Assembly: GCA_963693365.1 (NCBI GenBank)
Contig: CAVNZM010000005.1
Span: 6,635,388 to 6,699,387 of the forward strand
DNA: 64,000 bases
Origin: Amoebidium appalachense
Lineage: Eukaryota; Protista; Ichthyosporea
Direction: 5' to 3'
Made by a program: the position numbers and the translations under genes. Of this stretch, positions 15,155 through 55,677 are shown one piece after another. Under the pieces are notes generated by a model. It was not told where the DNA came from, did not search any database, and saw only the letters and a list, made by a program, of their open reading frames with translations. Position 1 is the first letter of the stretch; every line of letters begins with the position of its first letter.

Positions 15155-16682
15155 TGTGGTATATTATACCGGATATCTAGTATGGATGTACACAGGTTGA
15201 GATATACGCGCACGTGTACATGTATATATACCACTGTGTTTGATCTTAGGTAGGCCAGTATGCATGTCCCCCCAAGTCTTGTGCGCATGAGCATGAAGTT
15301 AAACATATGTGCACGTGCAGCTTGCAGGATTATTCATGGGAAAACAGATATAATAGTCACATGGGACCGACACGTAGTAGAGGAACCATGAGCGTTAAGT
15401 TATAGTTTTATCATGGGAAAATATGCAAGTAGCCGTGAGGTATGACTGTGGAATGCATCGATAGTCAAGTACTGTCACCCGATTGGCTCACTAAGTTTAT
15501 TGGAACCGTGATAGCCATTGCCGGAGGCAAGACTTCCCCCTCACTCCCGTCGTGGCTCCCCGAGGTGACCGAGACAAAGAGAAGCAGAAATGCAAGTCAG
15601 TGAGGAATTTTATTATTGATTTTAGCCCTAATAAATAATATCAGTATCTGATCAGAAAACCCCCAAAACCCCCGGATAAACCCCCTAAACCCCAGAACAC
15701 TGTGTGTGTGTGCACACGTGTGTGTGTGTGTATGTGTGTGTGTTTGTGTGTGTATGATAGGCTATTGAAGGAACAGCACTTCCAGCACACAATGGCCGAA
15801 AGAACCCCTTCATCTATCCAAGGGTGGGAGGGAGGGAAGAGAAAGCAAGAGCAAACCGTAAGGCACCAACTAATCAGACTGAGGTCTCAGCTTCTGCCCC
15901 TTTACACAAGGTGCCACCAAACCAAGAAAACACCCAAACAGCCTAATTATTACCTTATCACGTTGCTCCCTCCCCTTTTTTCTTTTCACCTACACACTAG
16001 CTCTAAAAACAAGAACTGAACGAACGACGCCCACAGCCAGCTCTACAAAGCTGGTACGCGGCTCACTCACATTTTTAGAACAGTGGAAAAGCCACCAATC
16101 ATATCACCTATCTACTGATAACTACGGATCACTTCATAACTATACCTGATCTATATCCAATCACTAAAGATACATACGACTGAGCTTAACATTCTACCCG
16201 TTAGGGCCAATCAGCTTGCACCGCTATGTAGCCGTTACCGCCGACTGACCGAACACGTGTCATCTCTCACCGCTGCCTCCTCCCGCTCGAGAACAACATG
16301 CCGGAGGCAAGACTTCCCCCTCACTCCCGTCGTGGCTCCCCGAGGTGACCGAGACAAAGAGAAGCAGAAATGCAAGTCAGTGAGGAATTTTATTATTGAT
16401 TTTAGCCCTAATAAATAATATCAGTATCTGATCAGAAAACCCCCAAAACCCCCGGATAAACCCCCTAAACCCCAGAACACTGTGTGTGTGTGCACACGTG
16501 TGTGTGTGTGTATGTGTGTGTGTTTGTGTGTGTATGATAGGCTATTGAAGGAACAGCACTTCCAGCACACAATGGCCGAAAGAACCCCTTCATCTATCCA
16601 AACCTACCCTACTTGTTTTTATTTTGTGATTGTGTCTTTTAAATAATGTGTGTTGGGTGTGTGTAGTAGAAGCCTGTAGCTG

Positions 16683-17726
16683 CTAATCGTGCGTAATCAT
16701 GTGTGGCCTACGGGCCAAGGATTTTGCCTGGGCTGACAGATGAGCGGGCATTGAAATTGCCAGGAGCATGGCCTTGTTCGTGTCAATGTAGTGGTTGAAA
16801 GGCGTCGTGAAATTACGCCACCGACCATTGATACGAATATGCTCATAGTCCTCCCCTCTGAGTGCTGCTGTGGAGGCTGCCCCGTGCCGTGTGCTGTACA
16901 ATGAGAAGTCGCTATCCAGGCCCACAGCCGTCAGACTCTGTTGCATACGAGTTGCTACCAGCGATGGTGTGTACCCAGGATGAAACAGAGGGTCGGATGG
17001 GCGGGAGCCATGGGGAAATGCACCCACTGCCATGAGCTTCTGCAGCAAATGCAAGCACACTGGATCACGGATCACCACCATCTGATGATTGCCCGTTTTG
17101 GACCGTGGAAGAAGCAACACTGCCCTGCCCGCTGGAGCATTGATTTCAATCAACCGTGGATCATTCGGAGGAATGAAGTCTGCCACCGTGCGCCGCGAGA
17201 GCTCCCCCGGCCGGGTGTAGGTTGCGAATGACATACACAGATAGAGTGCTACGTGCGGCATCTTGTATTCCCACAGAGCCGACACTGCCAAAATCATGTA
17301 GTCGTAGGGGAGTGGTCTGTGGTGATTGGTCGGGTTAGCATGGTCCCACCCCCTTAGGACCCTGGCCGACAGGACCAAGGAGTCCTTGCACTGGGGATAG
17401 AAATGGTGGATGGCTGACAGCACCGTCTTGCAGTGGGCGAGCCCGCTGCGGGTCTCTCCCAACTCTTCGTACATGTCAGCTGCATAGCTCGCAAGCATGT
17501 TATCCACCTGCTCTACCGACTGGAAGGTGCTCACCCCATCTTCCACACACCACGCTACGAATTTGTTCAAGGCGTTGTCGTATTTCGCCACTGTGGGAGC
17601 CGTGACATTGAGATTGAGCATATGCGTGATTTTTGCAGAGGGCGACGTCACGTGACGGCATGTCTGCTGGATTGTGGGCAGAAGGGACCCACACACACGC
17701 CGGTCGAAGTGCGGCTGCACACACAA
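16683..17726 (-). CDS. Tyrosine recombinase of element B (probable ATG at 17621)
   Basis: YTRPGEL, RSKT, YSTRHGAAS, NGRW and HYI catalytic motifs; overlaps the RNase H 3' end as in DIRS-order elements. Confidence 0.9.
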   Translation of the reverse strand: MCVQPHFDRRVCGSLLPTIQQTCRHVTSPSAKITHMLNLNVTAPTVAKYDNALNKFVAWCVEDGVSTFQSVEQVDNMLASYAADMYEELGETRSGLAHCKTVLSAIHHFYPQCKDSLVLSARVLRGWDHANPTNHHRPLPYDYMILAVSALWEYKMPHVALYLCMSFATYTRPGELSRRTVADFIPPNDPRLIEINAPAGRAVLLLPRSKTGNHQMVVIRDPVCLHLLQKLMAVGAFPHGSRPSDPLFHPGYTPSLVATRMQQSLTAVGLDSDFSLYSTRHGAASTAALRGEDYEHIRINGRWRNFTTPFNHYIDTNKAMLLAISMPAHLSAQAKSLARRPHMITHD

Positions 17727-20211
17727 GTGCTGCCACCCGCCGGCACAGATGGTTTAGCCGTCGTGAACTCGATCTACCCTTGGCCACCGCAAACAATAAA
17801 GATGTGTTGTCGATGAGATGAGCTACTCTGGTGCTGTGATTTTGTGGTGCTCGCGTGAAACGTCGTAGTGATAATAGCAGCGCGTGCCCCTCGAGGATGG
17901 TGATGTGATCTTCGTGCCGCCACGGAGTAGATATCGGATGGTGCCACTGCAGACCGTCAACTACTTTCAGAAAAGAGTCGTCGGTCGTGGGGTGGTTCGT
18001 GCTGTCGTTACATTCATCGGCTGAAAGGGCGTTAATCACGAGCTCACCGGTGTCGTCCACAGGCCCCAAGAAGGAATAACCGGGTCTGGACACCGACTGT
18101 GCTAATGCCGTCAACGATTGCTCAGCCGTAACGGACGCAATAGAAACACCTGCTCACTTGGTGGACGCATCTGATGCCAACAGAAGAGAGGCGGGAGCAG
18201 CCGTCAAATCACACACAATGAGAGGTGCCAAATCCACCAACAGGGCCAACTCCCCCTTGACTGCAGAGGGGATTGGGCATGCCGTTAGTGGACATTGGCC
18301 GGCTGACAACGCAAACTGATAACTCGCCTCTAACACAGAAAATAAAGCTCTATTCAAAAGCAACAACCACGCCCAGCCCCCAAGCAAACGAGATAACGCC
18401 CGTGGAGCCACCTCCCGCATGAACAGAACCGCCTTTGTGTCGGCTAGTAGCCGCGCCAACCGTGATGCATCCGGTCGAATAACACCGTCCCGTCCTATAG
18501 CCAACCCAAGTGCTACGGTCTCCGGGTGGTCTCGTGACGCCGTGACCGTTTTGGACGGTTTTATTTCGAATCCGTGTGTCTCTCCAGCGCGCCCGGCTGC
18601 CGTCATCTCGGAATTTACAGTAGATTCCTCCAACCCAACCCCCACCCAATCATCCACGTAGATCAAATGTGCCGTATCCGATTGGTCGGTAATGGAATGT
18701 GCCGGTGAAGAATTCGATTGGATGCATCGTTCGATACGTAAAGGCGGGTGCGTGATGTGCTGGTGAGAACGTTGGGCGACAAACGGTGCCCATTTCCAGC
18801 CCATCGGCATAGACAACACCCGCGGATACACCAACCTATCGACACCCGGCAGTCCCACTGCTGAAGACGAAACCGGCGGAAGCCCTTGGTACCAAGACAG
18901 CCAGTCTGGCACCCGAAAACGGTGGTAGAAATTCGAAAAATCGTACTTGGCCACCACCACCGCTGCGTCCTTCGGAACAATGATACTACACAAATCTGCC
19001 GGACTGGGAAAATTCGGATTGGGCGGGTCTATCATGACTGCATTCATGGGGCGAGCATCCATGATAAGACGGTCTTCCTTCTCATCTTTCTCCACCGCAA
19101 ATAAACCATTGATAATCTTTGGGGGCTCCGAAATTTCTGAAAAAGCAACCATACCACAAACATACATACGCTTAGCCAATATAGGCCACTCCGCAGGCGA
19201 CGCAAATGCATGGACAGGACGCCCGGGCAAAGGGTGGGCTCCTTCAGCACCCTCAGTGGTGCTCTCAGTTGCCAACACGCCCCCAAGCCCGCAAACTCCG
19301 TGACCGTTCGGCTGTCCGACCGCGTCACCCGTGCGATTTGACGCCACCACCAACACGTTTGGCTTCTCCATCATCTCCTTGAGGTCAGGTGGAAGGACCT
19401 CTAGGAGCGGAACTGTTGCCCCAAACCCCTCAGGAGGAAGGGCAATACGCTCAGCAACTATGGGGGTGAAAGCTTTTGAGTGATTGAAATATGGGAAAGA
19501 TTCAGACACAGCCGCTAAGGGGACATTGCTGATCCTGCGGCGCATATCCGCGCAAAAAACGAAAATTCGCTGAATGGATTGTGTCTGTGCCGGTGAGGGT
19601 GCATGAGAAAAGTGCGTGGATTTAGGAAAAGGCGTGGGAAAAAAATGTGTGCTGGTAGGAGGGGAAAATGTTGAAAAGTGTGTGTGATTCTGGGAAGAGG
19701 TGTCGTGCATGTTGTGCCAAACATCGTTCCTAGGAGATTCTACCGAGCCAGGTGGCCCATTATACAACGTGTTGATTGCAGCTATGGTTCTATTAACCAA
19801 CTTTAACACAGCAAATCTCTTGTTGAACCTCCCACGTCTTCTTGGAGAGGACAACCTAACACCATCAAGCAACAGCGGGACTACAAAAAGGGGAAGTGGA
19901 AGTAAATCATTAGACACATGGGGAAACAAGCCTGGCTCAGCCGCGCCCGTGACGCCCTCACCAGGGGTACTAACATGGGGGGCTACGGGCTCACCGGTGT
20001 ACCACTTCCGAGGGAAAGAACCAAACTCAGCTGGTTCCGTGGCAGCTGTGTTCGGGAACGAAGGCTGTGGACCGTGGCCTCCCCTTGCCTCAGCTGGGCA
20101 GCTGCGGGAGGCGCAGGGGGGTACGAATCTGTGGAAGCTGGGCCTAGGCATCCTTGTTGCCATCGAACGGTCCATCCACACACACGCGCGCCACCGTGAT
20201 TCCCCCCGCAC
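17500..20211 (-). pseudogene. RT-RNase H of element B with one in-frame TGA (18154-18156)
   Basis: RT motifs DRLIMDAR, KYDFSNFYH, MPMGWKWAP, YVDD; RNase H motifs SDAS, ILEGHAL, IDN, WVPSAHNPAD. ORFs 18154-20211 and 17500-18114 share one frame. Confidence 0.88.
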
Positions 20212-21450
20212 CTCCCCACAGGGGGAGGCCGTGTGTTTACACCGAGCTCGACTACCTAGTAGAGACCGTGCATTGACTCACAATGTCGTATATAAGAGAG
20301 TTCTGCTCGGGAAGAAGAGAGGCTCACTTGCCCATGTCAAGGAAAGCAGAGCACGTATTTGTAATGCTTGGAGTTCAGAAAGTTCACTGTGACTGTATAG
20401 GCAGAGAGACAGACAAAATTTACGTAGTTTTTCACTCTACAAGACTCCTCAGCGCTAGCGAGCTAAACAACATACTGAAGGGAAAAGACAAATGTAAAAG
20501 TCGTATTAATATCTAGAGCGAAAAAAGGAACCTTGAAAATGAGGAGAACGAGCTGGTTAACGTTGAGTTGCCAGAATTCGTGTGACAATTGCAGAAGTCA
20601 ACAGAAAAAAGGACAGCTAGCTAAGGCAACTAGTTTGTGCGCTTTTACAGTAGCACCACCAAACTTAGTTCAACCAACTAACTCTACAAATCCCTTTTAC
20701 CTCTGATGCCAGACACTCACACAAACGCTAAAACGAAAACCAAAGAGAAAGCAAGAGCAAACCGTAAGGCACCAACTAAACAGACTGAGGTCTCAGCTTC
20801 TGCCCCTTTACACAAGGTGCCACCAAACCAAGAAAACACCCAAACAGCCTAATTATTACCTTATCACGTTGCTCCCTCCCCTTTTTTCTTTTCACCTACA
20901 CACTAGCTCTAAAAACAAGAACTGAACGAACGACGCCCACAGCCAGCTCTACAAAGCTGGTACGCGGCTCACTCACATTTTTAGAACAGTGGAAAAGCCA
21001 CCAATCATATCACCTATCTACTGATAACTACGGATCACTTCATAACTATACCTGATCTATATCCAATCACTAAAGATACATACGACTGAGCTTAACATTC
21101 TACCCGTTAGGGCCAATCAGCTTGCACCGCTATGTAGCCGTTACCGCCGACTGACCGAACACGTGTCATCTCTCACCGCTGCCTCCTCCCGCTCGAGAAC
21201 AACAGGGACAGAACCGTGAACCGTATGTGATTGGCTCTCGTAGCCAAAAAGCACATACCGATGCGCATGTCTGAGCCGCTGTGCGAGCTCCGATATAAGG
21301 GCATGTCGGGGGCTTCAGAGCTCACTCAGTGTGCTCGGCTTACTAGGTGTAAGTAGGACTAGCGCGTAACTAAGCAAAGCGTGGTCTAGTCAACCCCGTT
21401 CATTTATAAACATATTGTTTGTCACAGACACACGATCATATTATACAACA

Positions 21451-21466
21451 GCTGAGCTACACCCCC
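21451..21466 (+). promoter_or_regulatory. Primer-binding-site position of Gypsy copy 1 (GCTGAGCTACACCCCC), complementary to a tRNA-Ala-like 5' end
   Basis: Directly follows the LTR terminal CA; reverse complement is GGGGGTGTAGCTCAGC; identical in copy 2 (31641-31656). Confidence 0.7.
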
Positions 21467-21515
21467 TGCAGCTCTAGTTCTTGCGCTGCAAGTGTGCTCG
21501 TATCAAGCAAGTACT

Positions 21516-23417
21516 ATGTTTTTAGTTGTTTGGGTCCTAACATGTCTAACCACCTTGGTGACGACAATGCCGGCCCTAGCGGCCTGCATGGGGGGGAAGC
21601 TAGAAACGCCGACCTCATTTTCCTTGAAGAACTCGGCTATAATGTCCCCCTTTCCTCCCCCGGCGCTTCACCGTGGTACCCTCCTGGAGCAGACATTCCG
21701 TTGCTCGACCGTGTCTACTTCCGTTCACACGACTTGCAACACGACAATCAATACTGCTTCTCTTTTCGTTCAGGGGAAACCGACTACGGACAATCATTTG
21801 ACCCCGAAGACCTGCCACCTGAAGACAATCGACATTCATCAGTCAACCTTCTCCACGGGCTGGAAGTCGAGGTCAACGCAAACGCAAGCAGAGGCACCAG
21901 ACGCCCTGGTACGCGCCCTAACGGAGTATGCAAATTTGCACAACAAGACGGGCGTGAGCCTGGCAGCTTGGTGCTGGTGCGTTCTTGGGTGTCTCCTTCT
22001 GTTCATGCTGCTGGCATTGTTGGTATCGAAGTTTGCCAGCTGTACAGCGCGCACGGCACTGTACCGTTCGTCGTCGGCACTCACCATGCTCCACCAACAA
22101 CTACTCGCCCTCGCGAATGTATTCACTTCCAGGCAAAACTACGCGTGCCTTTCAGGGCAGTCTTCCCACATCACTAAGTCACATGAATTTATCAATCAGT
22201 TAGTGACTCTTAGTCGTGGTGAGCTCGACCTAGTGGTTACTTATTATGGTGACCGGGGCCCTCGAAAATTTCATCCAAGCATGCTCCCCTCGTGGGTTCG
22301 TGCCGGACGGAGCCCCCGTAAGAACTCTGGCCGAGGTGGTAGGGGTGGACGTGGTGGTGGCCGGGGGGGGCATAACAACCCCCCTCCTGCTGCCAACGAA
22401 AATGGGGATGGTAATGCAGGTGGCGGTGGCCCCCCACCTCCCCCGGACGGTGGTGCTGACGGTGGTGCCGGTGGTGCTAATGGTGCCGGAGGTGCTAACG
22501 GTGCTGGTGGTGCCGGTGGTGGTGGTGGTGATGGTGGTGGCGACGGCGGTGACGGTGGTGATGACGGTGACGGTAACGACGGTAACGGTGACGACCGGGA
22601 GGGGAAGGAAAAGATTCAACACATCCCCTCAGCAGCCATTCAGTCCCGTCCTATGCTCGAGGCAGATGCCGATATCGACGAATTCTACAAACAACTCCAA
22701 CATCGTTTAATTTTCTTTTGTATTATGGAGTTGGTGGGCTTGAATCGCACGTTGATGTTTATTCGCATGTGCATGGGCCCCGGGGACCCCCGAGATGCTG
22801 CCGACAACGTCGACCTTTCCACGTGCACCGGCATCGACGATTTTTGGGCTAAGTTCCTTGAGAAGTATTTAGACAAGGAACGTAAGGAGGAGCATTTAGA
22901 CGAGCTGAACAAGCTTCGTTTTATGCACACTCGGGCCTCGATAAAGACATTCCACAAGAAATTTAATTGCATCGTCTCCAACACGGGTCTCAAGAACATG
23001 CCCGAGGTTGTGCTTCATCATTACCAACGTACCCTCAACGACTACCCGGACCTTTGTTCGGAGGCCTGGGCTGCCACCACCCTCAAGCAAGCCATGGCCC
23101 GTGTCATCCGACGGTATGAGGCTGATGTGGGTGCTCACAATTTAAAATGTAACCGTAATGTGGGTGCTGTAGATGAGATGGGTGGTGGTAGTGGGGGGCA
23201 TGGTGGTGGTGGTGGTGGTCACGGGGGTGGCCACGGAGGTAGTGGGGGTAATGTTGGTGGTAAGGGTAAATCTAATGGGGGGGGCAAATGGGCTAAGGAC
23301 AATAAGAAAGATAAGAGGGGGCCCAATTGTTGGGCATGCAAGCAGCCGGGGCATCGTTTTAAAGATTGCCCCACCCGAGCTGCCAAGAAGAACAAGGGCA
23401 AGCAAAGTGAAAAATAG
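21516..23417 (+). CDS. gag: Gag with N-terminal signal-peptide-like and transmembrane segments, Gly-rich linkers, capsid-like region and CCHC knuckle
   Basis: First ATG after the PBS; MFLVVWVLTCLTTLVTTMPALA; hydrophobic LAAWCWCVLGCLLLFMLLALLV; CWACKQPGHRFKDC. Confidence 0.75.
   Translation: MFLVVWVLTCLTTLVTTMPALAACMGGKLETPTSFSLKNSAIMSPFPPPALHRGTLLEQTFRCSTVSTSVHTTCNTTINTASLFVQGKPTTDNHLTPKTCHLKTIDIHQSTFSTGWKSRSTQTQAEAPDALVRALTEYANLHNKTGVSLAAWCWCVLGCLLLFMLLALLVSKFASCTARTALYRSSSALTMLHQQLLALANVFTSRQNYACLSGQSSHITKSHEFINQLVTLSRGELDLVVTYYGDRGPRKFHPSMLPSWVRAGRSPRKNSGRGGRGGRGGGRGGHNNPPPAANENGDGNAGGGGPPPPPDGGADGGAGGANGAGGANGAGGAGGGGGDGGGDGGDGGDDGDGNDGNGDDREGKEKIQHIPSAAIQSRPMLEADADIDEFYKQLQHRLIFFCIMELVGLNRTLMFIRMCMGPGDPRDAADNVDLSTCTGIDDFWAKFLEKYLDKERKEEHLDELNKLRFMHTRASIKTFHKKFNCIVSNTGLKNMPEVVLHHYQRTLNDYPDLCSEAWAATTLKQAMARVIRRYEADVGAHNLKCNRNVGAVDEMGGGSGGHGGGGGGHGGGHGGSGGNVGGKGKSNGGGKWAKDNKKDKRGPNCWACKQPGHRFKDCPTRAAKKNKGKQSEK
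21542..22177 (+). CDS. Overlapping alternative-frame ORF (~211 aa), unknown function
   Basis: Open in both element copies (copy 2: 31732-32373); starts at the second ATG after the PBS. Confidence 0.35.
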   Translation: MSNHLGDDNAGPSGLHGGEARNADLIFLEELGYNVPLSSPGASPWYPPGADIPLLDRVYFRSHDLQHDNQYCFSFRSGETDYGQSFDPEDLPPEDNRHSSVNLLHGLEVEVNANASRGTRRPGTRPNGVCKFAQQDGREPGSLVLVRSWVSPSVHAAGIVGIEVCQLYSAHGTVPFVVGTHHAPPTTTRPRECIHFQAKLRVPFRAVFPHH

Positions 23418-23496
23418 GTAATTGCCGGTGCTAGATGCACGGATACGGCATGTATTGCACATTGTGACCCAGTGGGTCACGAAAAAGTAATTAAAA

Positions 23497-24717
23497 ATGT
23501 GCCTATACCAAGTGCTTCTGCCCCGGCTTCTTCCGATATCCCCCCCTCCGAGCCCCTTTCCCCCGACCCCCGACCCCCCACCCCCCCACACCCATCCCCC
23601 CCCCACAAAGAAACTTCGAACACTCGATAGAATAAGAAAAGTGTTCGATATAAGTGCCATATGCAATGCAGGAAGACGTATCTATGTTAATGTTACGTTG
23701 AGTAATGAAAAATATTTTGCATTGTTTGACACTGGGGCATCATTCACGGTGGTTAGTGAAGCTGTTTTTTCCCGACACATGCAGGAGTTTGCTTTGCAAC
23801 CCTCGGATGTGATTGTTACTTCTGTAAGGAAAAACGATAAAGCTCTAGCTGTGAGTGGTGAAGTGATGCTCCCGTTATGCCTCGGTTCTCAAACATTCAT
23901 GTGGCCTTGCTTAGTAATTAAAAATATTAAGCATGACATGATTATTGGGAACGATTTTGCCAACAAACACATTGCCACTACTAATCATCAAGCACACTCA
24001 CTGACACTGGTGTCGGGGATGGTGGTGCCGACGTCATCATTGCACACCCCCTACACAATGTGTCCTGTTACCGTCAAGCACGTCGACACCACCGTCAAAT
24101 CTGGCTTTGGATGTGTATTACGTGCAACGGTGCAGGTGACTGCTGCTGCTGCTGCTGCTGGCACCCTCGGTATCTTCGAGCCTACTCGTGGTGAATTTCG
24201 AGATAAGTTCCCCCCCACCATCTGTGAAATTAGTGTGGATAAATCAATTGCTGTTGTGTGCGAAAATGGTGTGGGTCCGGATTTGAACGTGTTCGGTACC
24301 ATCGGTCATTTCGTTCCTACGAGCCGACATGAGTACATACACGAACTGAGTGTTTTGCAAGCCGAACCCCACCCCAGTCGTACACAAACCGTCGTTGGTG
24401 CAATAGCGCAGTGCATCAGGTGGGCAACGGGGGGTGGAGAAGGTTGCCTACCCAATTCACCTCCGGCCGTGCCACCGGGCCGGGTGCCTACCGATAACAT
24501 GTGTGGGCACGAAGGGCATGTGAGTGGGACACGAGGCGGTCCGATACACTCACCGATCGACCAATCAATGTGTGCCGTTGATCATGAAAACCCCCCCCCC
24601 CGCGAAAAATTTCGGAAATTTCGGGTGGGGGTGCACACGATGCCGGCCAGGCTCCCCACGGTTTTGATTGGAATAGGGTGCCTCAGAGTATGCTTCCGGA
24701 TGTCAAGAAACTATTAG
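23497..24717 (+). CDS. Retropepsin aspartic protease ORF of Gypsy copy 1
   Basis: ALFDTGASFTVVS and DMIIGNDF motifs. Confidence 0.85.
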   Translation: MCLYQVLLPRLLPISPPPSPFPPTPDPPPPHTHPPPTKKLRTLDRIRKVFDISAICNAGRRIYVNVTLSNEKYFALFDTGASFTVVSEAVFSRHMQEFALQPSDVIVTSVRKNDKALAVSGEVMLPLCLGSQTFMWPCLVIKNIKHDMIIGNDFANKHIATTNHQAHSLTLVSGMVVPTSSLHTPYTMCPVTVKHVDTTVKSGFGCVLRATVQVTAAAAAAGTLGIFEPTRGEFRDKFPPTICEISVDKSIAVVCENGVGPDLNVFGTIGHFVPTSRHEYIHELSVLQAEPHPSRTQTVVGAIAQCIRWATGGGEGCLPNSPPAVPPGRVPTDNMCGHEGHVSGTRGGPIHSPIDQSMCAVDHENPPPREKFRKFRVGVHTMPARLPTVLIGIGCLRVCFRMSRNY

Positions 24718-27700
24718 AAGCACACTCTCGTTGCTTCATCACTACGGACCCCGACGAATTTCCTCAGATTAAAGGATTCACCATGCACATAGACACGGGA
24801 GATAACCCACCGATTCGATTAAAACAGTGGAGGTTGGAACAAGTGAAAGAGCAGGCTGCAAAGGAGATCGTGGAGGATATGTGTCGTAGAGGGCAGATGG
24901 AACAAGCACACAGTCAGTATAATTCACCCACCTTCGTAATACGAAAACCAAACGGAAAATACCGTCTGCTGACTGATTTTCGTGCTCTTAACAAGCAAAT
25001 TCGAAAATCTGCCTGCCACCCATGCCCAACTTGCAACAACAAATAGAGAAGTTGGCTGGGTATAAGTATTTCTGTAAAGCTGATATGTCGGGTGCCTTTT
25101 ACCAAATACTGCTAGACGCTGAGTCACGTGAAAAAACAGGATTTTCTGTGGCTGGTGTGCAGTATCGTTATTGTGTGGCACCACAGGGGCTAAGTACTTC
25201 CCCGTCCCAGCTAGCATCTATCATGACACAGATTTTGGCCCCTCTGGCCGATGACGTGGTGGTATATGCCGATGATTTAGCTGTGGGTGCACACACCGAA
25301 AAAGAATTAATACAGAAGCTTGACCGACTTTTCACCCGCCTCGGTGAATATGGAGTTAAGCTCGATGGGGCAAAGACATACATTGGGCTCACGGAAATAC
25401 CGTTTTTGGGTTGGATTGTAGGTGTGAATGGCATTCGGCCCGACCCGAAAAAGGTTCAGGCAGTGAAAGATTGGCCGGTACCAAACACACTACATCAACG
25501 TTAACTCCGGGGTTTTCTGGGTATTACTTCGTATCTCCGCCGTCACATTTTAAATTATGCAGAGCGAGCCCGGCCCATGAATGCCGAGTGTTACGGAGAA
25601 AAACACCGACGGTTAAAATGGACGGACGAATTAGATCGCTCGTTTAAAGATTTAAAATCGGCGTTATCGGAGGAAGTGCTTGCCCTGCCCGATCTTTCCC
25701 CCACGGGGGGTCAGTTTCTTATTCGTTGTGATGCTAGTCGGTTCTCGGAAGGGGCTTGCCTGTATCAAAAACAAAAAGATGGCAAGTTCCGCACGGTGGC
25801 ATATGCCTCCCGGATGTTTCAACCTACCGAACGTAGGTGGAGCAACATCGAACGAGAAACGCATGCAATCTATTGGGCCCTGAAAGAGTTTAGGGTGTAC
25901 GTGTATGGTCGAGTGAATACTATTGTGGAAAGTGACCATAAGCCCTGTCTTTCTCTTAAAGGTGTCAAACGGATAGCAAACGAACGGATGCAACGGTGGG
26001 CTTTGGAAATGCAGGAGTATGATTTCGATCTATACTACCGTCCTGGCCCTACCATGCACGATGCTGATGGGTTAAGCCGTATAGGATATATTCTGCATGA
26101 GAACGAAAACATACCACTGGAAAAGTGGGATGTGAAAAAGGAATTACAAGAGGTTCTCACAGCAGATTTATCCGAGCTTAGCTCGAAACCAGCCGAAGTG
26201 TTTGTTGATTGGGGTGATGCACTCGAATTCACACACATTTTCGATCCAGACCGCTTGAAATGTGCACAAATTTCTGCACTCAGTCAAGCCGGCCTGCCCT
26301 CCCTTTCTGTACTCGGTGGTGCCGGCTATCAGAAGGAAGCAATTATGATGGCACAGGGGGGGGACAAAATGTGTAAGGATATAATCACGTGGCTCCGGTG
26401 GCTTGCCTCCCTCGATGCCGAGGCCAAACGGGAATGGCAGGCAGGGGGGGAACGAGCTGCACACGGTCTTAATCTTGAGTATTTCGGATACAAAAAGGTT
26501 AAGAAAATAGCACAAATGTGTGTGATAGAGGATGACGTGCTTTATCATGTGGCTAAGGATGGTCGTCGTTGCCTATATGTGCCCGAAATCCTTCGTGCTG
26601 ATTTATTAAGAAGTGTGCACGACGGGGGGGGTCATACTGGCATTGAACGAACTTACGAAATATTATACAATTACTATTGGCCACGCATGCACAAAGATAT
26701 CACTGCTTATGTGAATGCCTGCACACAGTGCCAAGGCCGTAACGATAACCCACACTTGAGAAGTAGGCCATTTGAACAGAGATACGAAAATTTAAAAATG
26801 TTCTCTCGTGTTTCTGTTGACCTTATGGGTCCGTTCACAGAAACGAAAAATGGTAATACTTTCATTTGTGTGTTTATGGATATGGCAACGAAGTATTTAA
26901 TCACTGTGCCCATCCAATTTAATCATGCCGTTAATGTTGCACATGCACTCATGAATGTAATTTGCTATATACACGGCCCCCCTCGTACACTCTTGAGTGA
27001 TCAAGGATCAGAATTTCTCAATGAGCTAATTGTTGAGATTTGCCGTATAGCAAATATTGCACAAGTGAGCACCTCTGCATATCACCCACAAAGCAACGGT
27101 TCCAATGAACGGTCTCATAGATTTATTAATAATGCACTCTCAAAGTACGTTAATTATGAGCACACTAATTGGGACACTCTGTTGCCGGTGGTTACACATG
27201 CATACAACACAACAACACACAAAATTTTGCAATGTACACCGTATTATCTTGTGTACGGGCAAGAAGCAACACAATTCCCTGACGTTGCCCTTCTTAACAG
27301 TAACCACCCGGCACTCAAGGACCCAGAGTGGAAGGCATACCGGCGAGAGTTACTAGCCCGTCTGCCTCTGCTCCGTGCTGTGGTCCAGCAACGTGCCGTA
27401 CGAGAGCCCCCAGGCCCCTCGGTGGCTCGTGAACTTAAGAAAGGTGCACGGATTCGTGTTCGGAATCAAGCCAAAAATATCGGTGCCTGGGATGTACGGT
27501 GGATTACGGGTTACGAAATCGTCAAAAGGGTCGGCCCGGTCACGTACGAGATCCGAAGCTTAGCAACTATGAAAAAATCTAAGTGGCACGTGGACGATAT
27601 TCAGCTTGAATTGAGTGAGCAAAATAGAATTCGGCCTCAAGATCTCTCTCACCTCCCGGACACGGATGAAAGTCACAATTTCAACAAGGTTCTGCCGGAC

Positions 27701-27928
27701 GAGTGGGTGGTGGAAAAGGTGCTTGACGTAAGAATTCAGAAACGGCGCAAGCAATCCACCCCCTACAAGTGGTACCAGATCAAGTGGGCAGGCAAAGATG
27801 AATCATTCACCTCTTGGGAGTGTGAGAAAGACTTAGCCTGCCCGGACAAGATCCGAGAGTTCCACCAACGCAGAGGTGACCTTGCATCGTTCCACGGATA
27901 CATTGACTCATTGTGTGGAGCATGGTGA
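24678..27928 (+). pseudogene. pol: Pol of Gypsy copy 1 (RT, RNase H, integrase, chromodomain), interrupted by frameshifts and a stop
   Basis: YRLLTDFRALN, YADD, CDAS, SDHKP, integrase HHCC and DDE (VDLMGP, SDQGSEF, NERSH), chromodomain WVVEKVLD...YQIKWAG...SWE; lesions near 24595, 25015 and 25499-25504. Confidence 0.92.
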
Positions 27929-28346
27929 CGTATGTCGAGGACGACATACTTCTTTTTACGGTGGGGCGTGTGGTATATTATACCGGATATCTAGTATGGA
28001 TGTACACAGGTTGAGATATACGCGCACGTGTACATGTATATATACCACTGTGTTTGATCTTAGGTAGGCCAGTATGCATGTCCCCCCCAGTCTTGTGCGC
28101 ATGAGCATGAAGTTAAACATATGTGCACGTGCAGCTTGCAGGATTATTCATGGGAAAACAGATATAATAGTCACATGGGACAGACACGTAGTAGAGGAAC
28201 CATGAGCGTTAAGTTATAGTTTTATCATGGGAAAATATGCAAGTAGCCGTGAGGTATGACTGTGGAATGCATAGATAGTCAAGTACTGTCACCCGATTGG
28301 CTCACTAAGTTTATTGGAACCGTGATAGCCATGGGACAGAACCGTG

Positions 28347-30149: not shown

Positions 30150-31030
30150 CCCCTACTTTCTCTACTTAGGCATCCACCTTTACTTAGGCATCCACCTCTA
30201 CTTAGGCCCCTAGAGGGGCAGCTAGAACCCACCCATGGCTTCTCAGGACGTATCCTTGTCCCCGGACCCTCCTGGGACACCGCCTGGGAGCCGCAAACGT
30301 GATACACGGGAGGGAGAATCCCCAGATAAGAGGGTAACTAAACAGAGCCGGGCGGAACAGGTTCCCTTTCCCGAGGTTAAAGCGCCACTGGCCGTGCCGC
30401 CAGCAAGTAGTTTTATTAAGAAAGAACAACTGCACTTGATACCCGAGAAGGCTAGGAAATCCGTGCTCAAACTTATGGCGCATCATGAGCAGCTCCGCAC
30501 CCAAGTCTCCGACTTAACAACCCAAGTAGCTGAGTATAAAGCCAAACAGGACCACACAGACATCCTTGTTCAGCAAATGGAGACGCGCTTACGGCAGCTG
30601 GAAGCTGACCGGGCAACCCCCACCGGCCCTGCCCACGCGGGCCCGGCCCCTGCAGCACAGGCAGCCCCCGATGGGTTACCCACCCCCCCGAGGTCTCCCA
30701 AGTTCATACCCACAACGAACCCTAAGGTGTGTAGTACCGCACTACTGTGGACGCCAAGACCGTGTACGTGTCCGAGAAAGTCAAAACATATGCCGAGTCA
30801 GTGGCCCAGACCTTTGGCAGCCCTTGCCGCAGCGTCGGCACTGCACCCAACCCGCCGCCCTCGGGTGGCGTCTGCCCCTGCCCCTGAGGGTACCGACGAG
30901 TCCGAGTTGACCACTGCAGCCTTCACCATCATGATGGTGCCGGCCAACATCAGCATCATGCGTGACCGTCTTTACACCCTCGGTGTCCTCAACCGAATGA
31001 TTCCCGACATGCTCTTCATTGGCCGTCGCT

Positions 31031-34000
31031 TGTGGTATATTATACCGGATATCTAGTATGGATGTACACAGGTTGAGATATACGCGCACGTGTACATGTA
31101 TATATACCACTGTGTTTGATCTTAGGTAGGCCAGTATGCATGTCCCCCCAAGTCTTGTGCGCATGAGCATGAAGTTAAACATATGTGCACGTGCAGCTTG
31201 CAGGATTATTCATGGGAAAACAGATATAATAGTCACATGGGACCGACACGTAGTAGAGGAACCATGAGCGTTAAGTTATAGTTTTATCATGGGAAAATAT
31301 GCAAGTAGCCGTGAGGTATGACTGTGGAATGCATCGATAGTCAAGTACTGTCACCCGATTGGCTCACTAAGTTTATTGGAACCGTGATAGCCATGGGACA
31401 GAACCGTGAACCGTATGTGATTGGCTCTCGTAGCCAAAAAGCACATACCGATGCGCATGTCTGAGCCGCTGTGCGAGCTCCGATATAAGGGCATGTCGGG
31501 GGCTTCAGAGCTCACTCAGTGTGCTCGGCTTACTAGGTGTAAGTAGGACTAGCGCGTAACTAAGCAAAGCGTGGTCTAGTCAACCCCGTTCATTTATAAA
31601 CATATTGTTTGTCACAGACACACGATCATATTATACAACAGCTGAGCTACACCCCCTGCAGCTCTAGTTCTTGCGCTGCAAGTGTGCTCGTATCAAGCAA
31701 GTACTATGTTTTTAGTTGTTTGGGTCCTAACATGTCTAACCACCTTGGTGACGACAATGCCGGCCCTAGCGGCCTGCATGGGGGGGAAGCTAGAAACGCC
31801 GACCTCATTTTCCTTGAAGAACTCGGCTGTAATGTCCCCCTTTCCCCCCCCGGCGCTTCACCGTGGTACCCTCCTGGAGCAGACATTCCGTTGCTCGACC
31901 GTGTCTTAGACTACTTCCGTTCACACGACTTGCAACACGACAATCAATACTGCTTCTCTTTTCGTTCAGGGGAAACCGACTACGGACAATCATTTGACCC
32001 CGAAGACCTGCCACCTGAAGACAATCGACATTCATCAGTCGACCTTCTCCACGGGCTGGAAGTCGAGGTCAACGCAAACGCAAGCAGAGGCACCAGACGC
32101 CCTGGTACGCGCCCTAACGGAGTATGCAAATTTGCACAACAAGACGGGCGTGAGCCTGGCAGCTTGGTGCTGGTGCGTTCTTGGGTGTCTCCTTCTGTTC
32201 ATGCTGCTGGCATTGTTGGCATCGAAGTTTGCCAGCTGTACAGCGCGAACGGCACTGTACCGTTCGTCGTCGGCACTCACCATGCTCCACCAACAACTAC
32301 TCGCCCTCGTGAATGTATTCACTTCCAGGCAAAACTACGCGTGCCTTTCAGGGCAGTCTTCCCACATCACTAAGTCACATGAATTTATCAATCAGTTAGT
32401 GACTCTTAGTCGTGGTGAGCTCGACCTAGTGGTTACTTATTATGGTAACCGGGGCCCTCGAAAATTTCATCCAAGCATGCTCCCCTCGTGGGTTCGTGCC
32501 GGACGGGGCCCCCGTAAGAACTCTGGCCGAGGTGGTAGGGTTGACGTGGTGGTGGCCGGGGGGGGCATAACAACCCCCCTCCTGCTGCCAACGAAAATGG
32601 GGATGGTAATGCAGGTGGCGGTGGCCCCCCACCTCCCCCGGACGGTGGTGCTGACGGTGGTGCCGGTGGTGCTAATGGTGCCGGAGGTGCTAACGGTGCT
32701 CAGGCTGGTGGTGGTGGTGGTGATGGTGGTGGCGACGGCGGTGACGGTGGTGATGACGGTGACGGTAACGACGGCAACGGTGACGACCGGGAGGGGAAGG
32801 AAAAGATTCAACACATCCCCTCAGCAGCAATTCAGTCCCGTCCTATGCTCGAGGCAGATGCCGATATCGACGAATTCTACAAACAACTCCAACATCATTT
32901 AATATTCTTTTGTATTATGGAGTTGGTGGGCTTGAATCGCACGTTGATGTTTATTCGTATGTGCATGGGCCCCGGGGACCCCCGAGATGCTGCCAACAAC
33001 GTCGACCTTTCCACGTGCACCGGCATCGACGATTTTTGGGCTAAGTTCCTTGAGAAGTATTTAGACAAGGAACGTAAGGAGGAGCATTTAGACGAGCTGA
33101 ACAAGCTTCGTTTTATGCACACTCGGGCCTCGATAAAGACATTCCACAAGAAATTTAATTGCATCGTCTCCAACACGGGTCTCAAGAACATGCCCGATGT
33201 GTTGCTTCATCATTACCAACGTACCCTCAACGACTACCCGGACCTTTGTTCGGAGGCCCGGGCTGCAACCACCCTCAAACAAGCCATGGCCCGTGTCATC
33301 CGACGGTATGAGGCTGATGTGGGTGCTCACAATTTAAAATGTAACCGTAATGTGGGTGCTGTAGATGAGATGGGTGGTGGTAGTGGGGGGCATGGTGGTG
33401 GTGGTGGTGGTCACGGGAGTGGCCACGGGGGTAGTGGGGGTAATGTTGGTGGTAAGGGTAAATCTAATGGGGGGGGGAAAATGGGCTAAGGACAATAAGA
33501 AAGATAAGAGGGGGCCCAATTGTTGGGCATGCAAGCAGCCGGGGCATCGTTTTAAAGATTGCCCCACCCGAGCTGCCAAGAAGAACAAGGGCAAGCAAAG
33601 TGATAAATAGGTAATTGCCGGTGCTGGATGCACGGATACGGCATGTATTGCACATTGTGACCCAGTGGGTCACGAAAAAGTAATTAAAAATGTGCCTATA
33701 CCATGTGCTTCTGCCCCGGCTTCTTCCGATATTCCCCCCTCCGAGCCCCCTTCCCCCGACCCCCGACCCCCCACCCCCCCACACCTATCCCCCCCCCACA
33801 AAGAAACTTCGAACACTCGATAGAATAAGAAAAGTGTTCGATATAAGTGCCATATGCAATGCAGGAAGACGTATCTATGTTAATGTTACGTTGAGTAATG
33901 AAAAATATTTTGCATTGTTTGACACTGGGGCATCATTCACGGTGGTTAGTGAAGCTGTTTTTTCCCGACACATGCAGGAGTTTGCTTTGCAACCCTCGGA

Positions 34001-37000
34001 TGTGATTGTTACTTCTGTAAGGAAAAACGATAAAGCTCTAGCTGTGAGTGGTGAAGTGATGCTCCCGTTATGCCTCGGTTCTCAAACATTCATGTGGCCT
34101 TGCTTAGTAATTAAAAATATTAAGCTCGATGGGGCAAAGACATACATTGGGCTTACGGAAATACCGTTTTTGGGTTGGATTGTAGGTGTGAATGGCATTC
34201 GGCCCGACCCGAAAAAGGTTCAGGCAGTGAAAGATTGGCCGGTACCAAACACACTACACCAACTCCGGGGTTTTCTGGGTATTACTTCCTATCTCCGCCG
34301 TCACATTTTAAATTATGCAGAGCGAGCCCGACCCATGAATGCCGAGTGTTACGGAGAAAAACACCGACGGTTAAAATGGACGGACAAATTAGATCGCTCG
34401 TTTTAAGATTTAAAATCGGCGTTATCGGAGGAAGTACTTGCCCTGCCCGATCTTTCCCCCACGGGGGGTCAGTTTCTTATTCGTTGTGATGCTAGTCGGT
34501 TCTCGGAAGGGGCTTGCCTGTATCAAAAACAAAAAGATGGCAAGTTCCGCACGGTGGCATATGCCTCCCGGATGTTTCAACCTACCGAACGTAGGTGGAG
34601 CAACATCGAACGAGAAACGCATGCAATCTATTGGGCACTGAAAGAGTTTAGGGTGTACGTGTATGGTCGAGTGAATACTATTGTGGAAAGTGACCATAAG
34701 CCCTGTCTTTCTCTTAAAGGTGTCAAACGGATAGCAAACGAACGGATGCAACGGTGGGCTTTGGAAATGCAGGAGTATGATTTCGATCTATACTACCGTC
34801 CTGGCCCTACCATGCACGATGCTGATGGGTTAAGCCGTATAGGATATATTCTGCATGAGACCGAAAACATACCACTGGAAAGGTGGGATGTGAAAAAGGA
34901 ATTACAAGAGGTTCTCACAGCAGATTTATCCGACCTTAGCTCGAACCCAGCCGAAGTGTTTGTTGATTGGGGTGATGCACTCGAATTCACACACATTTTC
35001 GATCCAGACCGCTTGAAATGTGCACAAATTTCTGCACTCAGTCAAGCCGGCCTGCCCTCCCTTTCTGCACTCGGTGGTGCCGGCTATCAGAAGGAAGCAA
35101 TTATGATGGCACAGGGGGGGGACAAAATGTGTAAGGATATAATCACGTGGCTCCGGTGGCTTGCCTCCCTCGATGCCGAGGCCAAACGGGAATGGCAGGC
35201 AGGGGGGGAACGAGCTGCACACGGTCTTAATCTTGAGTATTTCGGATACAAAAAGGTTAAGAAAATAGCACAAATGTGTGTGATAGAGGATGACGTGCTT
35301 TATCATGTGGCTAAGGATGGTCGTCGTTGCCTGTATGTGCCCGAAATCCTTCGTGCTGATTTATTAAGAAGTGTGCACGACGGGGGGGCTCATACTGGCA
35401 TTGAACGAACTTACGAAAGATTATACAATTATTATTGGCCACGCATGCACAAAGATATCACTGCTTATGTGAATGCCTGCACACAGTGCCAAGGCCGTAA
35501 CGATAACCCACACTTGAGAAGTAGGCCATTTGAACAGAGATACGAAAATTTGAAAATGTTCTCTCGTGTTTCTGTTGACCTTATGGGTCCGTTCACAGAA
35601 ACGAAAAATGGTAATACTTTCATTTGTGTGTTTATGGATATGGCAACGAAGTATTTAATCACTGTGCCCATCCAATCTAAGCATGCCGTTAATGTTGCAC
35701 ATGCACTCATGAATGTAATTTGCTATATACACGGCCCCCCTCGTACACTCTTGAGTGATCAAGGATCAGAATTTCTCAATGAGCTAATTATTGAGATTTG
35801 CCGTATAGCAAATATTGCACAAGTGAGCACCTCTGCATATCACCCACAATGCAACGGTTCCAATGAACGGTCTCATAGATTTATTAATAATGCACTCTCA
35901 AAGTACGTTAATTATGAGCACACTAATTGGGACACTCTGTTGCCGGTGGTTACACATGCATACAACACAACAACACACAAAATTTTGCAATGTACACCGT
36001 ATTATCTTGTGTACGGGCAAGAAGCAACACAATTCCCTGACGTTGCCCTTCTTAGCAGTAACCACCCGGCACTCAAGGACCCAGAGTGGAAGGCATACCG
36101 GCGAGAGTTACTAGCCCGTCTGCCTCTGCTCCGTGCTGTGGTCCAGCAACGTGCCGTACGAGAGCCCCCAGGCCCCTCGGTGGCTCGTGAATTTAAGAAG
36201 GGTGCACGGATAGGTGTTCGGAATCAAGCCAAAAATATCGGTGCCTGGGATGTACGGTGGATTACGGGTTACGAAATCGTCAAAAGGGTCGGCCCGGTCA
36301 CGTACGAGATCCGAAGCTTAGCAACTATGAAGAAATCTAAGTGGCACGTGGACGATATTCAGCTTGAATTGAGTGAGCAAAATAGAATTCGGCCTCAAGA
36401 TCTCTCTCACCTCCCGGACACGGGCGATAGTCACAATTTCAACAAGGTTCTGCCGGACGAGTGGGTGGTGGAAAAGGTGCTTGACGTAAGAATTCAGAAA
36501 CGGCGCAAGCAATCCACCCCTTACAAGTGGTACCAGATCAAGTGGGCAGGCAAAGATGAATCATTCACCTCTTGGGAGTGTGAGAAAGACTTAGCCTGCC
36601 CGGACAAGATCCGAGAGTTCCACCAACGCAGAGGTGACCTTGCATCGTTCCACGGATACATTGACTCATTGTGTGGAGCATGGTGACGTATGTCGAGGAC
36701 GACATACTTCTTTTTACGGTGGGGCGTGTGGTATATTATACCGGATATCTAGTATGGATGTACACAGGTTGAGATATACGCGCACGTGTACATGTATATA
36801 TACCACTGTGTTTGATCTTAGGTAGGCCAGTATGCATGTCCCCCCCAGTCTTGTGCGCATGAGCATGGAGTTAAACATATGTGCACGTGCAACTTGCAGG
36901 ATTATTCATGGGGAATCAGATATAATAGCCACATGGGACCGACACGTAGTAGAGGAACCATGAGCGTTAAGTTATAGTGTTATCATGGGAAAATATGCAA

Positions 37001-37336
37001 GTAGCCGTGAGGTATGACTGTGGAATGCATCGATAATCAAGTACTGTCACCCGATTGGCTCACTAGGTTTATTGGAACCGTGATGGCCATGGGACAGAAC
37101 CGTGAACCGTATGTGATTGGCTCTCGTAGCCAAAAAGCACATACCGATGCGCATGTCTGAGCCGCTGTGCGAGCTCCGATATAAGGGCATGTTGGGGGCT
37201 TCAGAGCTCACTCAGTGTGCTCGGCTTACTAGGTGTAAGTAGGACTAGCACGTAACTAAGCAAAGCGTGGTCTAGTCAACCCCGTTCATTTATAAACATA
37301 TTGTTTGTCACAGACACACGATCTTATTATACAACA
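31031..37336 (+). mobile_element. Ty3/Gypsy chromodomain element, copy 2 (internally deleted)
   Basis: 610 bp LTRs at 31031-31640 and 36727-37336; TSD TCGCT; lacks ~1.43 kb (copy 1 23927-25355) through TTAAGC microhomology; gag frameshifted. Confidence 0.96.
34554..36686 (+). CDS. pol: RNase H-integrase-chromodomain portion of copy 2 pol
   Basis: Near-identical to copy 1 ORF 25577-27928. Confidence 0.9.
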   Translation: MAYASRMFQPTERRWSNIERETHAIYWALKEFRVYVYGRVNTIVESDHKPCLSLKGVKRIANERMQRWALEMQEYDFDLYYRPGPTMHDADGLSRIGYILHETENIPLERWDVKKELQEVLTADLSDLSSNPAEVFVDWGDALEFTHIFDPDRLKCAQISALSQAGLPSLSALGGAGYQKEAIMMAQGGDKMCKDIITWLRWLASLDAEAKREWQAGGERAAHGLNLEYFGYKKVKKIAQMCVIEDDVLYHVAKDGRRCLYVPEILRADLLRSVHDGGAHTGIERTYERLYNYYWPRMHKDITAYVNACTQCQGRNDNPHLRSRPFEQRYENLKMFSRVSVDLMGPFTETKNGNTFICVFMDMATKYLITVPIQSKHAVNVAHALMNVICYIHGPPRTLLSDQGSEFLNELIIEICRIANIAQVSTSAYHPQCNGSNERSHRFINNALSKYVNYEHTNWDTLLPVVTHAYNTTTHKILQCTPYYLVYGQEATQFPDVALLSSNHPALKDPEWKAYRRELLARLPLLRAVVQQRAVREPPGPSVAREFKKGARIGVRNQAKNIGAWDVRWITGYEIVKRVGPVTYEIRSLATMKKSKWHVDDIQLELSEQNRIRPQDLSHLPDTGDSHNFNKVLPDEWVVEKVLDVRIQKRRKQSTPYKWYQIKWAGKDESFTSWECEKDLACPDKIREFHQRRGDLASFHGYIDSLCGAW

Positions 37337-40300: not shown

Positions 40301-40412
40301 GAAAGCAAGCACAGCACAAAGCAGTTCCACGAATACGAATGGTTTTGGTTTTCCACACAACGAACAGAACCAACAGTAGGGCCACCTACAAAAGAAGCAG
40401 AGGATGGGGCAC

Positions 40413-43400: not shown

Positions 43401-44183
43401 TTGATGTCTGTTGTGTACACTGCTCCGATCGTTCCGTGTTTTGTTGTTGTGTGTGTCTGTGGTGTTTTCACACTGCACCACTGTGTCTCTGCTTACATCC
43501 TAAATACTTATAAAATTTAACAGGTTATGGGCCCAGGAACGCACACCATAGGTCACAGCTATAAGAAAGAAAAGAGGTGAAGAGTATCGAGGAAAGAGGT
43601 GATGTTTCTAACCTATCATCGGCTACAAAGACTCAGACATTTTCTGACTAAGTCCACTGATTGGATATAGTACGGCAACACACAAAACAAAAGTGTTTGA
43701 CTAAGCTATGAATCATACCTGACAAGCTAAAGTGTAGCCTAAGTGTTTTTCTACCAATCAAAACATAACGAGTAATATAAATCTACTCAACGTATATTAG
43801 TGAGAGAGAAATATAATTATGTGAAAGGAAACAAGAGAAGAAAGAAAGAGAAAAGAAAGAAGAAGAAAGAGAAAAAAGAAAAGAAAGCAGGACAGAAAAC
43901 ACGAACAGCAAAACACAGTTATAACCGAAGATATTCATGTACACATAACATGTACACATGTCTCCCTCACTGGGTAGACTCGTGTACCTATAATCAGTTG
44001 CTGTAATCGATATCTAAACACACGAATATAGCCGACACAACACGATTACAAGTACTCAAATACACTGGAGATCGATGTCATAATTTACGTACAAGGAGCA
44101 CATCTTTTTCATTAAGTAAATGAATGAAAACATAACACGAACTGAGAAGATCTTACAATATGTAAATACTACGTATTATAACA
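40413..44183 (-). mobile_element. Copia element, rearranged (gag, protease and integrase lost; U5+PBS inverted)
   Basis: 3' LTR 40413-41346; 5' LTR part 43534-44183; TSD GGCAC; PPT next to 41346; PBS GGTTATGGGCCCAG. Confidence 0.92.
41774..43320 (-). pseudogene. Copia RT-RNase H, 5'-truncated
   Basis: KARGVAQG, QLDVSTAFLN, LKKALYGLKQA, YVDD, TRPDI, YTDAD, STTEAE, YCDNQS, NLADILTK. Confidence 0.93.
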
Positions 44184-55045: not shown

Positions 55046-55234
55046 CTCACCTATACACTCTGCAGGCACAGCAAGAATGCTGTCGACATCACGGTCAACA
55101 TGCCAGCTTGCACATCTGCCCTGAGGTCCCCCCGATCGAGGTTCCCCCGACCTGAGGTCCCCCCCCCCCGACCTGAGGTCCCCCCCCCCCCCCCCCCCCC
55201 CTTTTACCCCAGCGAGAAGAGGATGAGAAAAAGA

Positions 55235-55307
55235 TGATCCCGACGGGATTTGAACCCGCGACCCCTCTATCTCCGGTCGAGTGCTCTACCAACTGAGCTA
55301 CGAGATC
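55235..55307 (-). tRNA. tRNA-like gene (anticodon position GGA, class I fold; probably TE-borne and not a translating tRNA)
   Basis: GATCTCG/CGGGATC acceptor stem, TAGCTCAGTTGGTAGAGC D arm, GGTTCAAATCC T arm, then T5; C33 and a mismatch in the anticodon stem. Confidence 0.75.
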
Positions 55308-55604
55308 GGTTAAGATCTCGCAGGCCACCAGCCGATCATGATCTGATTCATGCGATCGGACTGGATAACGATACCATCTTCCAACATCCCCACTCAGGAC
55401 GAATCGCAGAATCAGGTTAGGGTGGACTGCCCCCTCAGTCCCCACTGAACCCCTGTTCATGCTACCATTTTGGATTTCGTCCTGGTGCAGAGACTAGCGA
55501 TCTTGCTAGCCTTGAGATCACAACCTAACCACTGCCGATGGTTGTGATGACGCCAGTAAAGGCGTCCTGGCTTTTACCCCAGCGAGAAGAGGATGAGAAA
55601 AAGA

Positions 55605-55677
55605 TGATCCCGACGGGATTTGAACCCGCGACCCCTCTATCTCCGGTCGAGTGCTCTACCAACTGAGCTACGAGATC
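55605..55677 (-). tRNA. Second identical tRNA-like copy
   Basis: Same sequence as 55235-55307. Confidence 0.75.

Follow-up and report, generated by a model that had tools for sequence, protein, structure and literature searches.

The locus described here raises the question of whether an LTR retrotransposon lacking an envelope gene makes a Gag protein that carries its own membrane anchor, and how the sequence of such a protein would be shared with the ordinary products of gag. The window, a stretch of 64,000 nucleotides from the genome of Amoebidium appalachense, contains two copies of the element, 98.4% identical to each other. In copy 1, an initial annotation had proposed a Gag preceded in frame by a signal peptide, a surface domain and a transmembrane helix.

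A chromodomain-bearing Gypsy element

The following features delimit the two copies:

15155..15518, plus strand: 5' LTR of copy 1, part 1 (U3); starts with TG, 100% match to 31030-31394
21205..21450, plus strand: 5' LTR of copy 1, part 2 (TATA-like box at about 21294, R, U5; CA end); matches 31395-31640 and 37091-37336
21451..21466, plus strand: primer-binding site; pairs with nucleotides 1-16 of a tRNA, mostly tRNA-Ala, and not with its 3' CCA end (exact matches)
23491..27928, plus strand: pol, with Pfam matches to protease, reverse transcriptase (RT), RNase H, integrase and chromodomain in that order
27969..28346, plus strand: 3' LTR of copy 1, truncated
31031..37336, plus strand: copy 2, with a partial deletion of pol; frame A (see below) broken, frame B open

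The 5' LTR of copy 1 is interrupted by an inserted element (15519-21204), and copy 2 has complete 610-bp LTRs with TG..CA ends, flanked by a 5-bp target duplication. The domain after the integrase matches the Pfam family Chromo (PF00385, E 8e-9). By its LTRs, target duplication, order of pol domains and chromodomain, the element is a chromodomain-bearing Ty3/Gypsy LTR retrotransposon. Its pol is defective in both copies, in copy 1 through a stop at 25502-25504 as well as frameshifts around 24600-25050, and the family is found at high depth in several public sequencing runs. The closest relative of its Pol is a protein of Abeoforma whisleri (31% identity), with which it pairs (SH-aLRT 100), apart from the fungal chromodomain clade, in a quick tree of 38 rows that lacks the named reference chromoviruses and has an unresolved backbone. 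This one relative would by itself make an ichthyosporean or similar protist the likely host. The stretch from pol to the 3' LTR showed no ORF for env. The premise that chromodomain Gypsy elements lack env is not strict, for the available text of one study describes animal chromodomain-bearing Gypsy elements that carry a true env (PMC13524379).

The same primer site lies at the equivalent place in copy 2. Its exact matches in viral contigs fall inside an ARAGORN-predicted tRNA in 76 of 99 cases, 75 at position 1 and 65 in tRNA-Ala. From this placement, the primer may be a 5' tRNA fragment produced by cleavage in the D-loop, a predicted mode of priming that is notable regardless of any membrane form of Gag.

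Several neighboring features were observed in passing. Immediately after the gag stop, within 23415-23640, come a GT that resembles a splice donor and a stretch rich in C, and the protease ORF lies in a different frame in both copies; Pol could be expressed by way of a second intron, or by readthrough plus a frameshift. The element inserted in the 5' LTR of copy 1 (15519-21204, minus strand) encodes an RT and has split direct repeats (15519-15821 equals 16299-16601, and 15837-16298 equals 20743-21204), a layout that we take to recall DIRS/Ngaro-type elements; its other ORFs gave no recombinase by Pfam. Copia elements, nested and with LTR pairs of their own, occupy 38224-52003 and 55201-55761 together with further RT fragments and a 191-bp duplication carrying two tRNA-Ser(GGA) genes.

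Two overlapping frames at the start of gag

The gag region contains the following features:

21516..23417, plus strand: ORF A, 633 aa, comprising leader, spacer, helix, Gly linkers, Gag core and CCHC knuckle (open reading frame, stop at 23415-23417)
21516..21581, plus strand: signal-peptide-like leader in frame A (by eye and hydropathy only)
21542..22177, plus strand: ORF B, 211 aa, overlapping A in a different frame; its first ~122 codons are a conserved coding frame
21909..22047, plus strand: candidate GT..AG intron of 139 nt (3n+1), present in both copies; its removal joins B to A
21960..22025, plus strand: predicted transmembrane helix of 22 residues in frame A, entirely within the candidate intron (by hydropathy)
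22596..23165, plus strand: helical Gag core, capsid by position only (variants and a low-confidence model)
23325..23372, plus strand: CCHC zinc knuckle (PF00098, E 0.0018; 18.7 bits, below the Pfam cutoff of 20.8)

Frame A starts at the first ATG downstream of the LTR and primer site and is open throughout, and the leader, two sequons and the 22-residue hydrophobic stretch lie where the initial annotation had placed them. The sequons are at residues 75 and 143, with a third at 410. The 125-residue spacer between leader and helix had been described as rich in Thr, Ser and Cys; with 22 Thr, 13 Ser and 4 Cys, it is so for the first two only. Likewise, the basic residues said to follow the helix are present but were overstated, as there are only three within 20 positions. 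The best 19-residue Kyte-Doolittle mean is 2.67 for the helix and 1.89 for the leader; the latter lacks a basic n-region and is matched in hydrophobicity after 35 of the 919 ATGs in the window (ATG-started 25-mers; 3.8%). At the level of sequence, Gag thus has an in-frame extension at its upstream end that includes N-glycan sites and a predicted membrane helix.

Downstream of this extension, the Gag core has the marks of a conserved protein, with 8 of 13 variants silent and 9 of 13 at third codon positions (pooled, among the variants listed). Its single-sequence model is all-helical with low confidence (pLDDT 39.5). Searches of Pfam, PDB sequences and folds gave no relevant capsid match, and Foldseek and VIA-align found only unrelated helical matches to the model (best Z 6.5). 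The core is accordingly labeled a putative capsid by position, by the low-confidence helical model and by purifying selection, in place of a database match. Separately, contigs of 794 and 1232 nt from the DNA sequencing runs X2 and X7 match only one part of gag (22877-23219, ~88%) and differ from the window upstream of it; they represent a related family.

The case for frame A as the coding frame of the extension had been made from six substitutions between the two copies in the region of overlap. These were counted correctly, three being silent in A and the others exchanging I/V, V/A and A/V, but six changes are too small a sample, and a larger set of variants favors B. Of 32 variants at 21500-21800 in public contigs, 22 leave the B protein unchanged (10.6 expected; 0 of 20000 permutations reach this count) and 6 leave the A protein unchanged (10.1 expected). 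A contig from a diverged subfamily gives the same picture: at 21587-21768, pN/pS is 0.11 in B versus 1.93 in A (26 of the 37 differences in 21556-21798 were assigned by depth, and 3 ambiguous ones were excluded from pN/pS), and the residue is changed in 23 of 26 altered A codons versus 7 of 27 altered B codons, the replacements in A including L>P, F>S and H>P. For 21582-21908 as a whole, 27 of 42 pooled variants are silent in B and 9 of 42 in A (among the variants listed, a subset that includes 40 of 99 variant rows from one source). No nonsense variant in B is among those listed, and the codon-position base composition of 21542-21900 fits frame B. In a coding model trained on the other TE ORFs of the window, B scores better as far as about 21810 and A beyond about 22050, and the two differ little in the stretch between.

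The two copies differ in a way that bears on both frames. Frame B is open in each, and the 6-bp insertion that stops frame A in copy 2 is in frame for B. The insertion looks private, as the annotation had supposed (no indel is listed for 21500-21800 in X7 at a 1% share), so that the stop is not the state of the family. It is nevertheless not the only defect of frame A in copy 2: frameshifts of 1 nt occur as well, at about 22342 and about 23276.

We therefore regard it as established, by sequence comparison, that purifying selection in the region of the supposed ectodomain acts on frame B and not on frame A. The predicted ectodomain is an off-frame reading of a conserved protein, and no folded surface domain appears to be under selection. 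The Thr richness of the spacer probably stems from the Asp, Asn, His and Tyr codons of B, as judged from the frame offset. Lacking constraint, the outer segment is unlikely to serve in receptor binding or fusion. The built-in folded surface domain proposed for this protein is consequently given up: A accepts residue changes freely in 21587-21768, where B is conserved. To hold that A is a gene with a functional folded ectodomain and B an accidental open frame, one can point to the openness of A from the first AUG and to the three silent changes among the six between the copies, but the contrast in pN/pS and the share of altered A codons that change the residue contradict this for A residues 27-84, and we give it almost no credence.

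The product of B resembles nothing that we could find. No homologue appeared among proteins of 116-370 aa or in the ESM Atlas, Pfam, PHROGs, or viral and metagenome contigs, and its single-sequence fold is poor (pLDDT 30.5). Frame A gave no homologue as a whole, in a search where Gly-rich words may crowd the candidate list, nor for its residues 1-265 against 1.84 billion representatives; the ESM Atlas, Pfam, PHROGs and exact look-ups gave none for frame A or its ectodomain. Viral and metagenome contigs yielded three pattern matches, none of which had a tblastn match. B would thus be a conserved Gag-associated domain without a detectable homologue, even if the membrane form is unreal.

A candidate frame-switching intron and a probable membrane form

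The candidate intron lies within the stretch over which the favored frame changes. Its removal leaves a joined B-A frame of 578 codons with no internal stops and no strong helix. The GT..AG pair was singled out by way of X16, a public run whose nature as RNA is a guess and from which the evidence on its use comes. Record 5 of X16 fits 21728-21904 and continues with 30 further letters that do not match; the start of record 6 is at 22044, which leaves 139 nt between the fitted parts, and two other adjacent pairs of X16 records overlap by 30 nt. The contig ends lie 4 nt to the left of the canonical GT..AG sites, which implies either that the subfamily differs at two bases before the donor or that the gap is a plain deletion. 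A junction placed at random has a GT..AG pair no more than 4 nt away in 3% of cases; with the correct phase required as well, the figure is 0.6%. No splice joint is listed for X16 itself, and none for X2 and X7, the DNA runs that cover the stretch. X16 is without cover at 21905-22043, after 23415 and also at 22360-22436, and we do not count these gaps as evidence since the records were filtered. Only one variant lies inside the candidate intron (among the variants listed), and selection on frame A in 22048-22340 is weak (6 of 13 variants listed are silent, P 0.10). In a separate observation, one DNA contig of X2 from a diverged subfamily skips 83 nt at 21472-21556.

On this evidence, we consider a splice across 21909-22047 probable. 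A frame-switching intron inside gag that survives retrotransposition would matter even without a membrane form.

Were there no splicing, B would be a separate 211-aa accessory protein, and Gag would come from A, either anchored and full-length or started at an internal AUG (22086 or 22281). Consistent with this, both copies carry B uninterrupted as far as its own stop, with no nonsense variant among those listed; three of seven variants in 22048-22177 are still silent in B (among the variants listed); X2 and X7 list no joint; and accessory ORFs upstream of gag are known, according to the available texts of PMC11952523 and PMC4408406. However, openness of B past 22048 is cheap (P 0.38-0.59), and the 139-nt spacing in X16 together with an in-frame GT..AG pair would have to be a coincidence (0.6-3%); we regard this arrangement as rather unlikely. 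Far less probable is a programmed +1 frameshift, or another splice, that leads from B to A before the helix and makes a single protein of B domain, helix and Gag. It would account for the same switch of selection from B to A and would explain that the B domain and the helix both look genuine, but neither a slippery site nor a junction was identified, the stretch 21890-22070 folds no better than its shuffles (z -1.5), and the signal in the leader (see below) would be left unexplained.

A splice that removes the helix from Gag makes the status of the helix critical. The locus was chosen because of its helix, and this selection effect applies to the following estimates of chance: such a helix arises with a probability of 0.0004-0.0012 when the B protein is kept and its codons are resampled, of 0.0003-0.0013 in dinucleotide shuffles of the intron and of 0.0016 in a local shuffle. 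Hydrophobicity at the level of the helix occurs in none of 638 windows of other TE coding DNA and in 41 of 1422 background windows (2.9%), which are mostly host DNA. About 2% of shuffles leave the intron free of stops in both frames. In the leader, the diverged contig has 0 of 6 changes at codon position 2 of A versus 18 of 26 just downstream (Fisher p 0.003, in a post hoc test with changes read from a loose contig end of 30 nt). The changes in A are silent or between hydrophobic or small residues; the ATG of B is kept in register, and B residues 2-5 are altered. Other measures are neutral: stops in A number 0 among the 81 pooled variants listed, which is uninformative with 0.27-0.47 expected in the best-sampled part, and the openness of A over the first exon of B (P 0.016-0.48 depending on the codon model) is not decisive.

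The helix and leader thus look selected in frame A. This part of the initial proposal is not refuted, in that the helix is improbable by chance and the changes in the leader spare A, while its ectodomain is rejected. It is conceivable that only spliced Gag is made, the leader, spacer and helix of A being by-products of a T-rich 5' UTR, of the codons of B and of the intron, with no stable protein. The unconstrained ectodomain and the position of the helix entirely within the candidate intron agree with this, as do the frequencies of leader-like 25-mers at ATGs and of helix-like windows in background DNA given above. Against it, several independent coincidences would be needed (the helix at about 1e-3, the two open intron frames at about 2%, the A-sparing leader), and the upstream AUG would compete with the initiation of Gag. 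We judge this outcome unlikely. On balance, we favor the view that some membrane-anchored Gag is made, more likely as a second isoform than as the sole Gag.

The best way to combine these elements is that ribosomes read the start of gag in two frames, B spliced to the Gag core providing the main, soluble Gag and unspliced RNA the membrane form, an arrangement that we regard as a serious possibility somewhat short of an even chance. Removal of the intron would join frame B to the Gag core, producing a soluble Gag with B as its N-terminal domain; ribosomes would pass AUG 21516 by leaky scanning and start at AUG 21542. Both AUGs have an A at -3, and the first AUG on the spliced RNA would give a 182-aa product without the helix. 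From unspliced RNA, initiation at AUG 21516 would yield a predicted type I membrane Gag, with its signal peptide cleaved and its spacer luminal and glycosylated. The spacer would need only to stay open, its sequence being dictated by B. The cytosolic Gag tail could co-assemble with soluble Gag and tether particles to the membrane, the tether serving as an assembly site or as an aid to release. Speculatively, it could also favor the packaging of unspliced RNA, and the retention of the intron in genomic copies might then follow from such preferential packaging. Tethering, choice of assembly site or packaging of unspliced RNA fit better than receptor binding or fusion.

Comparison with known systems

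The nearest functional analogue of the predicted membrane Gag is the glycoGag (gPr80) of MLV. In the available text of PMC12530543, this is an N-terminally extended, glycosylated, membrane-spanning isoform, produced alongside ordinary Gag by initiation further upstream on the full-length RNA; it starts at CUG and is mostly described as type II, with Gag outside, although a type I form is also reported. As described there, glycoGag shares the frame of Gag, without an overlapping conserved ORF or an intron, whereas here there are an overlapping B and a candidate intron. The topology predicted here is type I, in a Gypsy retrotransposon, and the likeness drawn is one of function.

A second comparison is with the sORF2/FAST-like products of the Drosophila MDG1 group, env-less Gypsy elements in which, according to the accessible part of PMC11952523, a transmembrane product encoded upstream of gag co-localizes with capsids at membranes. 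There, sORF2 is an ORF of its own, ~70 aa long, that shows low dN/dS, carries a polybasic tail and in most cases is myristoylated. The present helix belongs to the same 633-aa frame as Gag, to which it is fused, and is preceded by a signal-like leader and an unconstrained spacer of 125 aa. We considered a fusogen of this kind and rejected it: there is no separate short ORF, frame A lacks an N-terminal MGxxxS/T myristoylation motif, and the basic residues after the helix number only three. An env-bearing, errantivirus-like layout was likewise set aside, as A residues 27-84 are unconstrained (pN/pS 1.93) and no family or homologue matched.

Spliced gag RNAs are known from plant elements. The Ty1/Copia element EVD has a spliced subgenomic gag RNA, shGAG (PMC5580714), and Ogre retains an intron whose splicing makes different Gag products (PMC4408406). 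As far as the available texts describe them, these introns lie at the gag/protease or gag-pro/pol boundary; the candidate here is inside 5' gag, changes the frame and bears the helix. Tyl6, considered as a further precedent for a gag intron, is not supported by the part of its literature that is available. In the literature covered, outside which lie most subscription journals and bioRxiv supplements, we found no Gypsy element that combines overprinted frames with a helix-bearing gag intron. Extra ORFs as such are common in LTR elements, according to the accessible text of PMC7264820; 10.64898/2026.05.21.726589 and PMC12992720 provide further background, in the parts available, from which no specific fact is drawn.

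With chromodomain Ty3/Gypsy elements (chromoviruses, Skipper and chromodomain errantiviruses), the element shares the order PR-RT-RH-IN, a C-terminal chromodomain and a 5-bp target duplication, and a non-canonical primer site is common to the present element and Skipper, as the available texts describe the latter (PMC5006619, PMC4007536).

Tentatively, and going beyond the two-frame reading itself, we propose that one frame-switching intron may provide both a soluble Gag, whose conserved N-terminal domain is novel, and a membrane Gag that tethers or buds particles, an independent counterpart of glycoGag with inverted topology and a possible step towards cell exit without env. If the membrane form is real, an env-less retrotransposon would couple its capsid to membranes through an anchor fused to Gag, with implications for the ways in which intracellular elements come to be released or to spread between cells.
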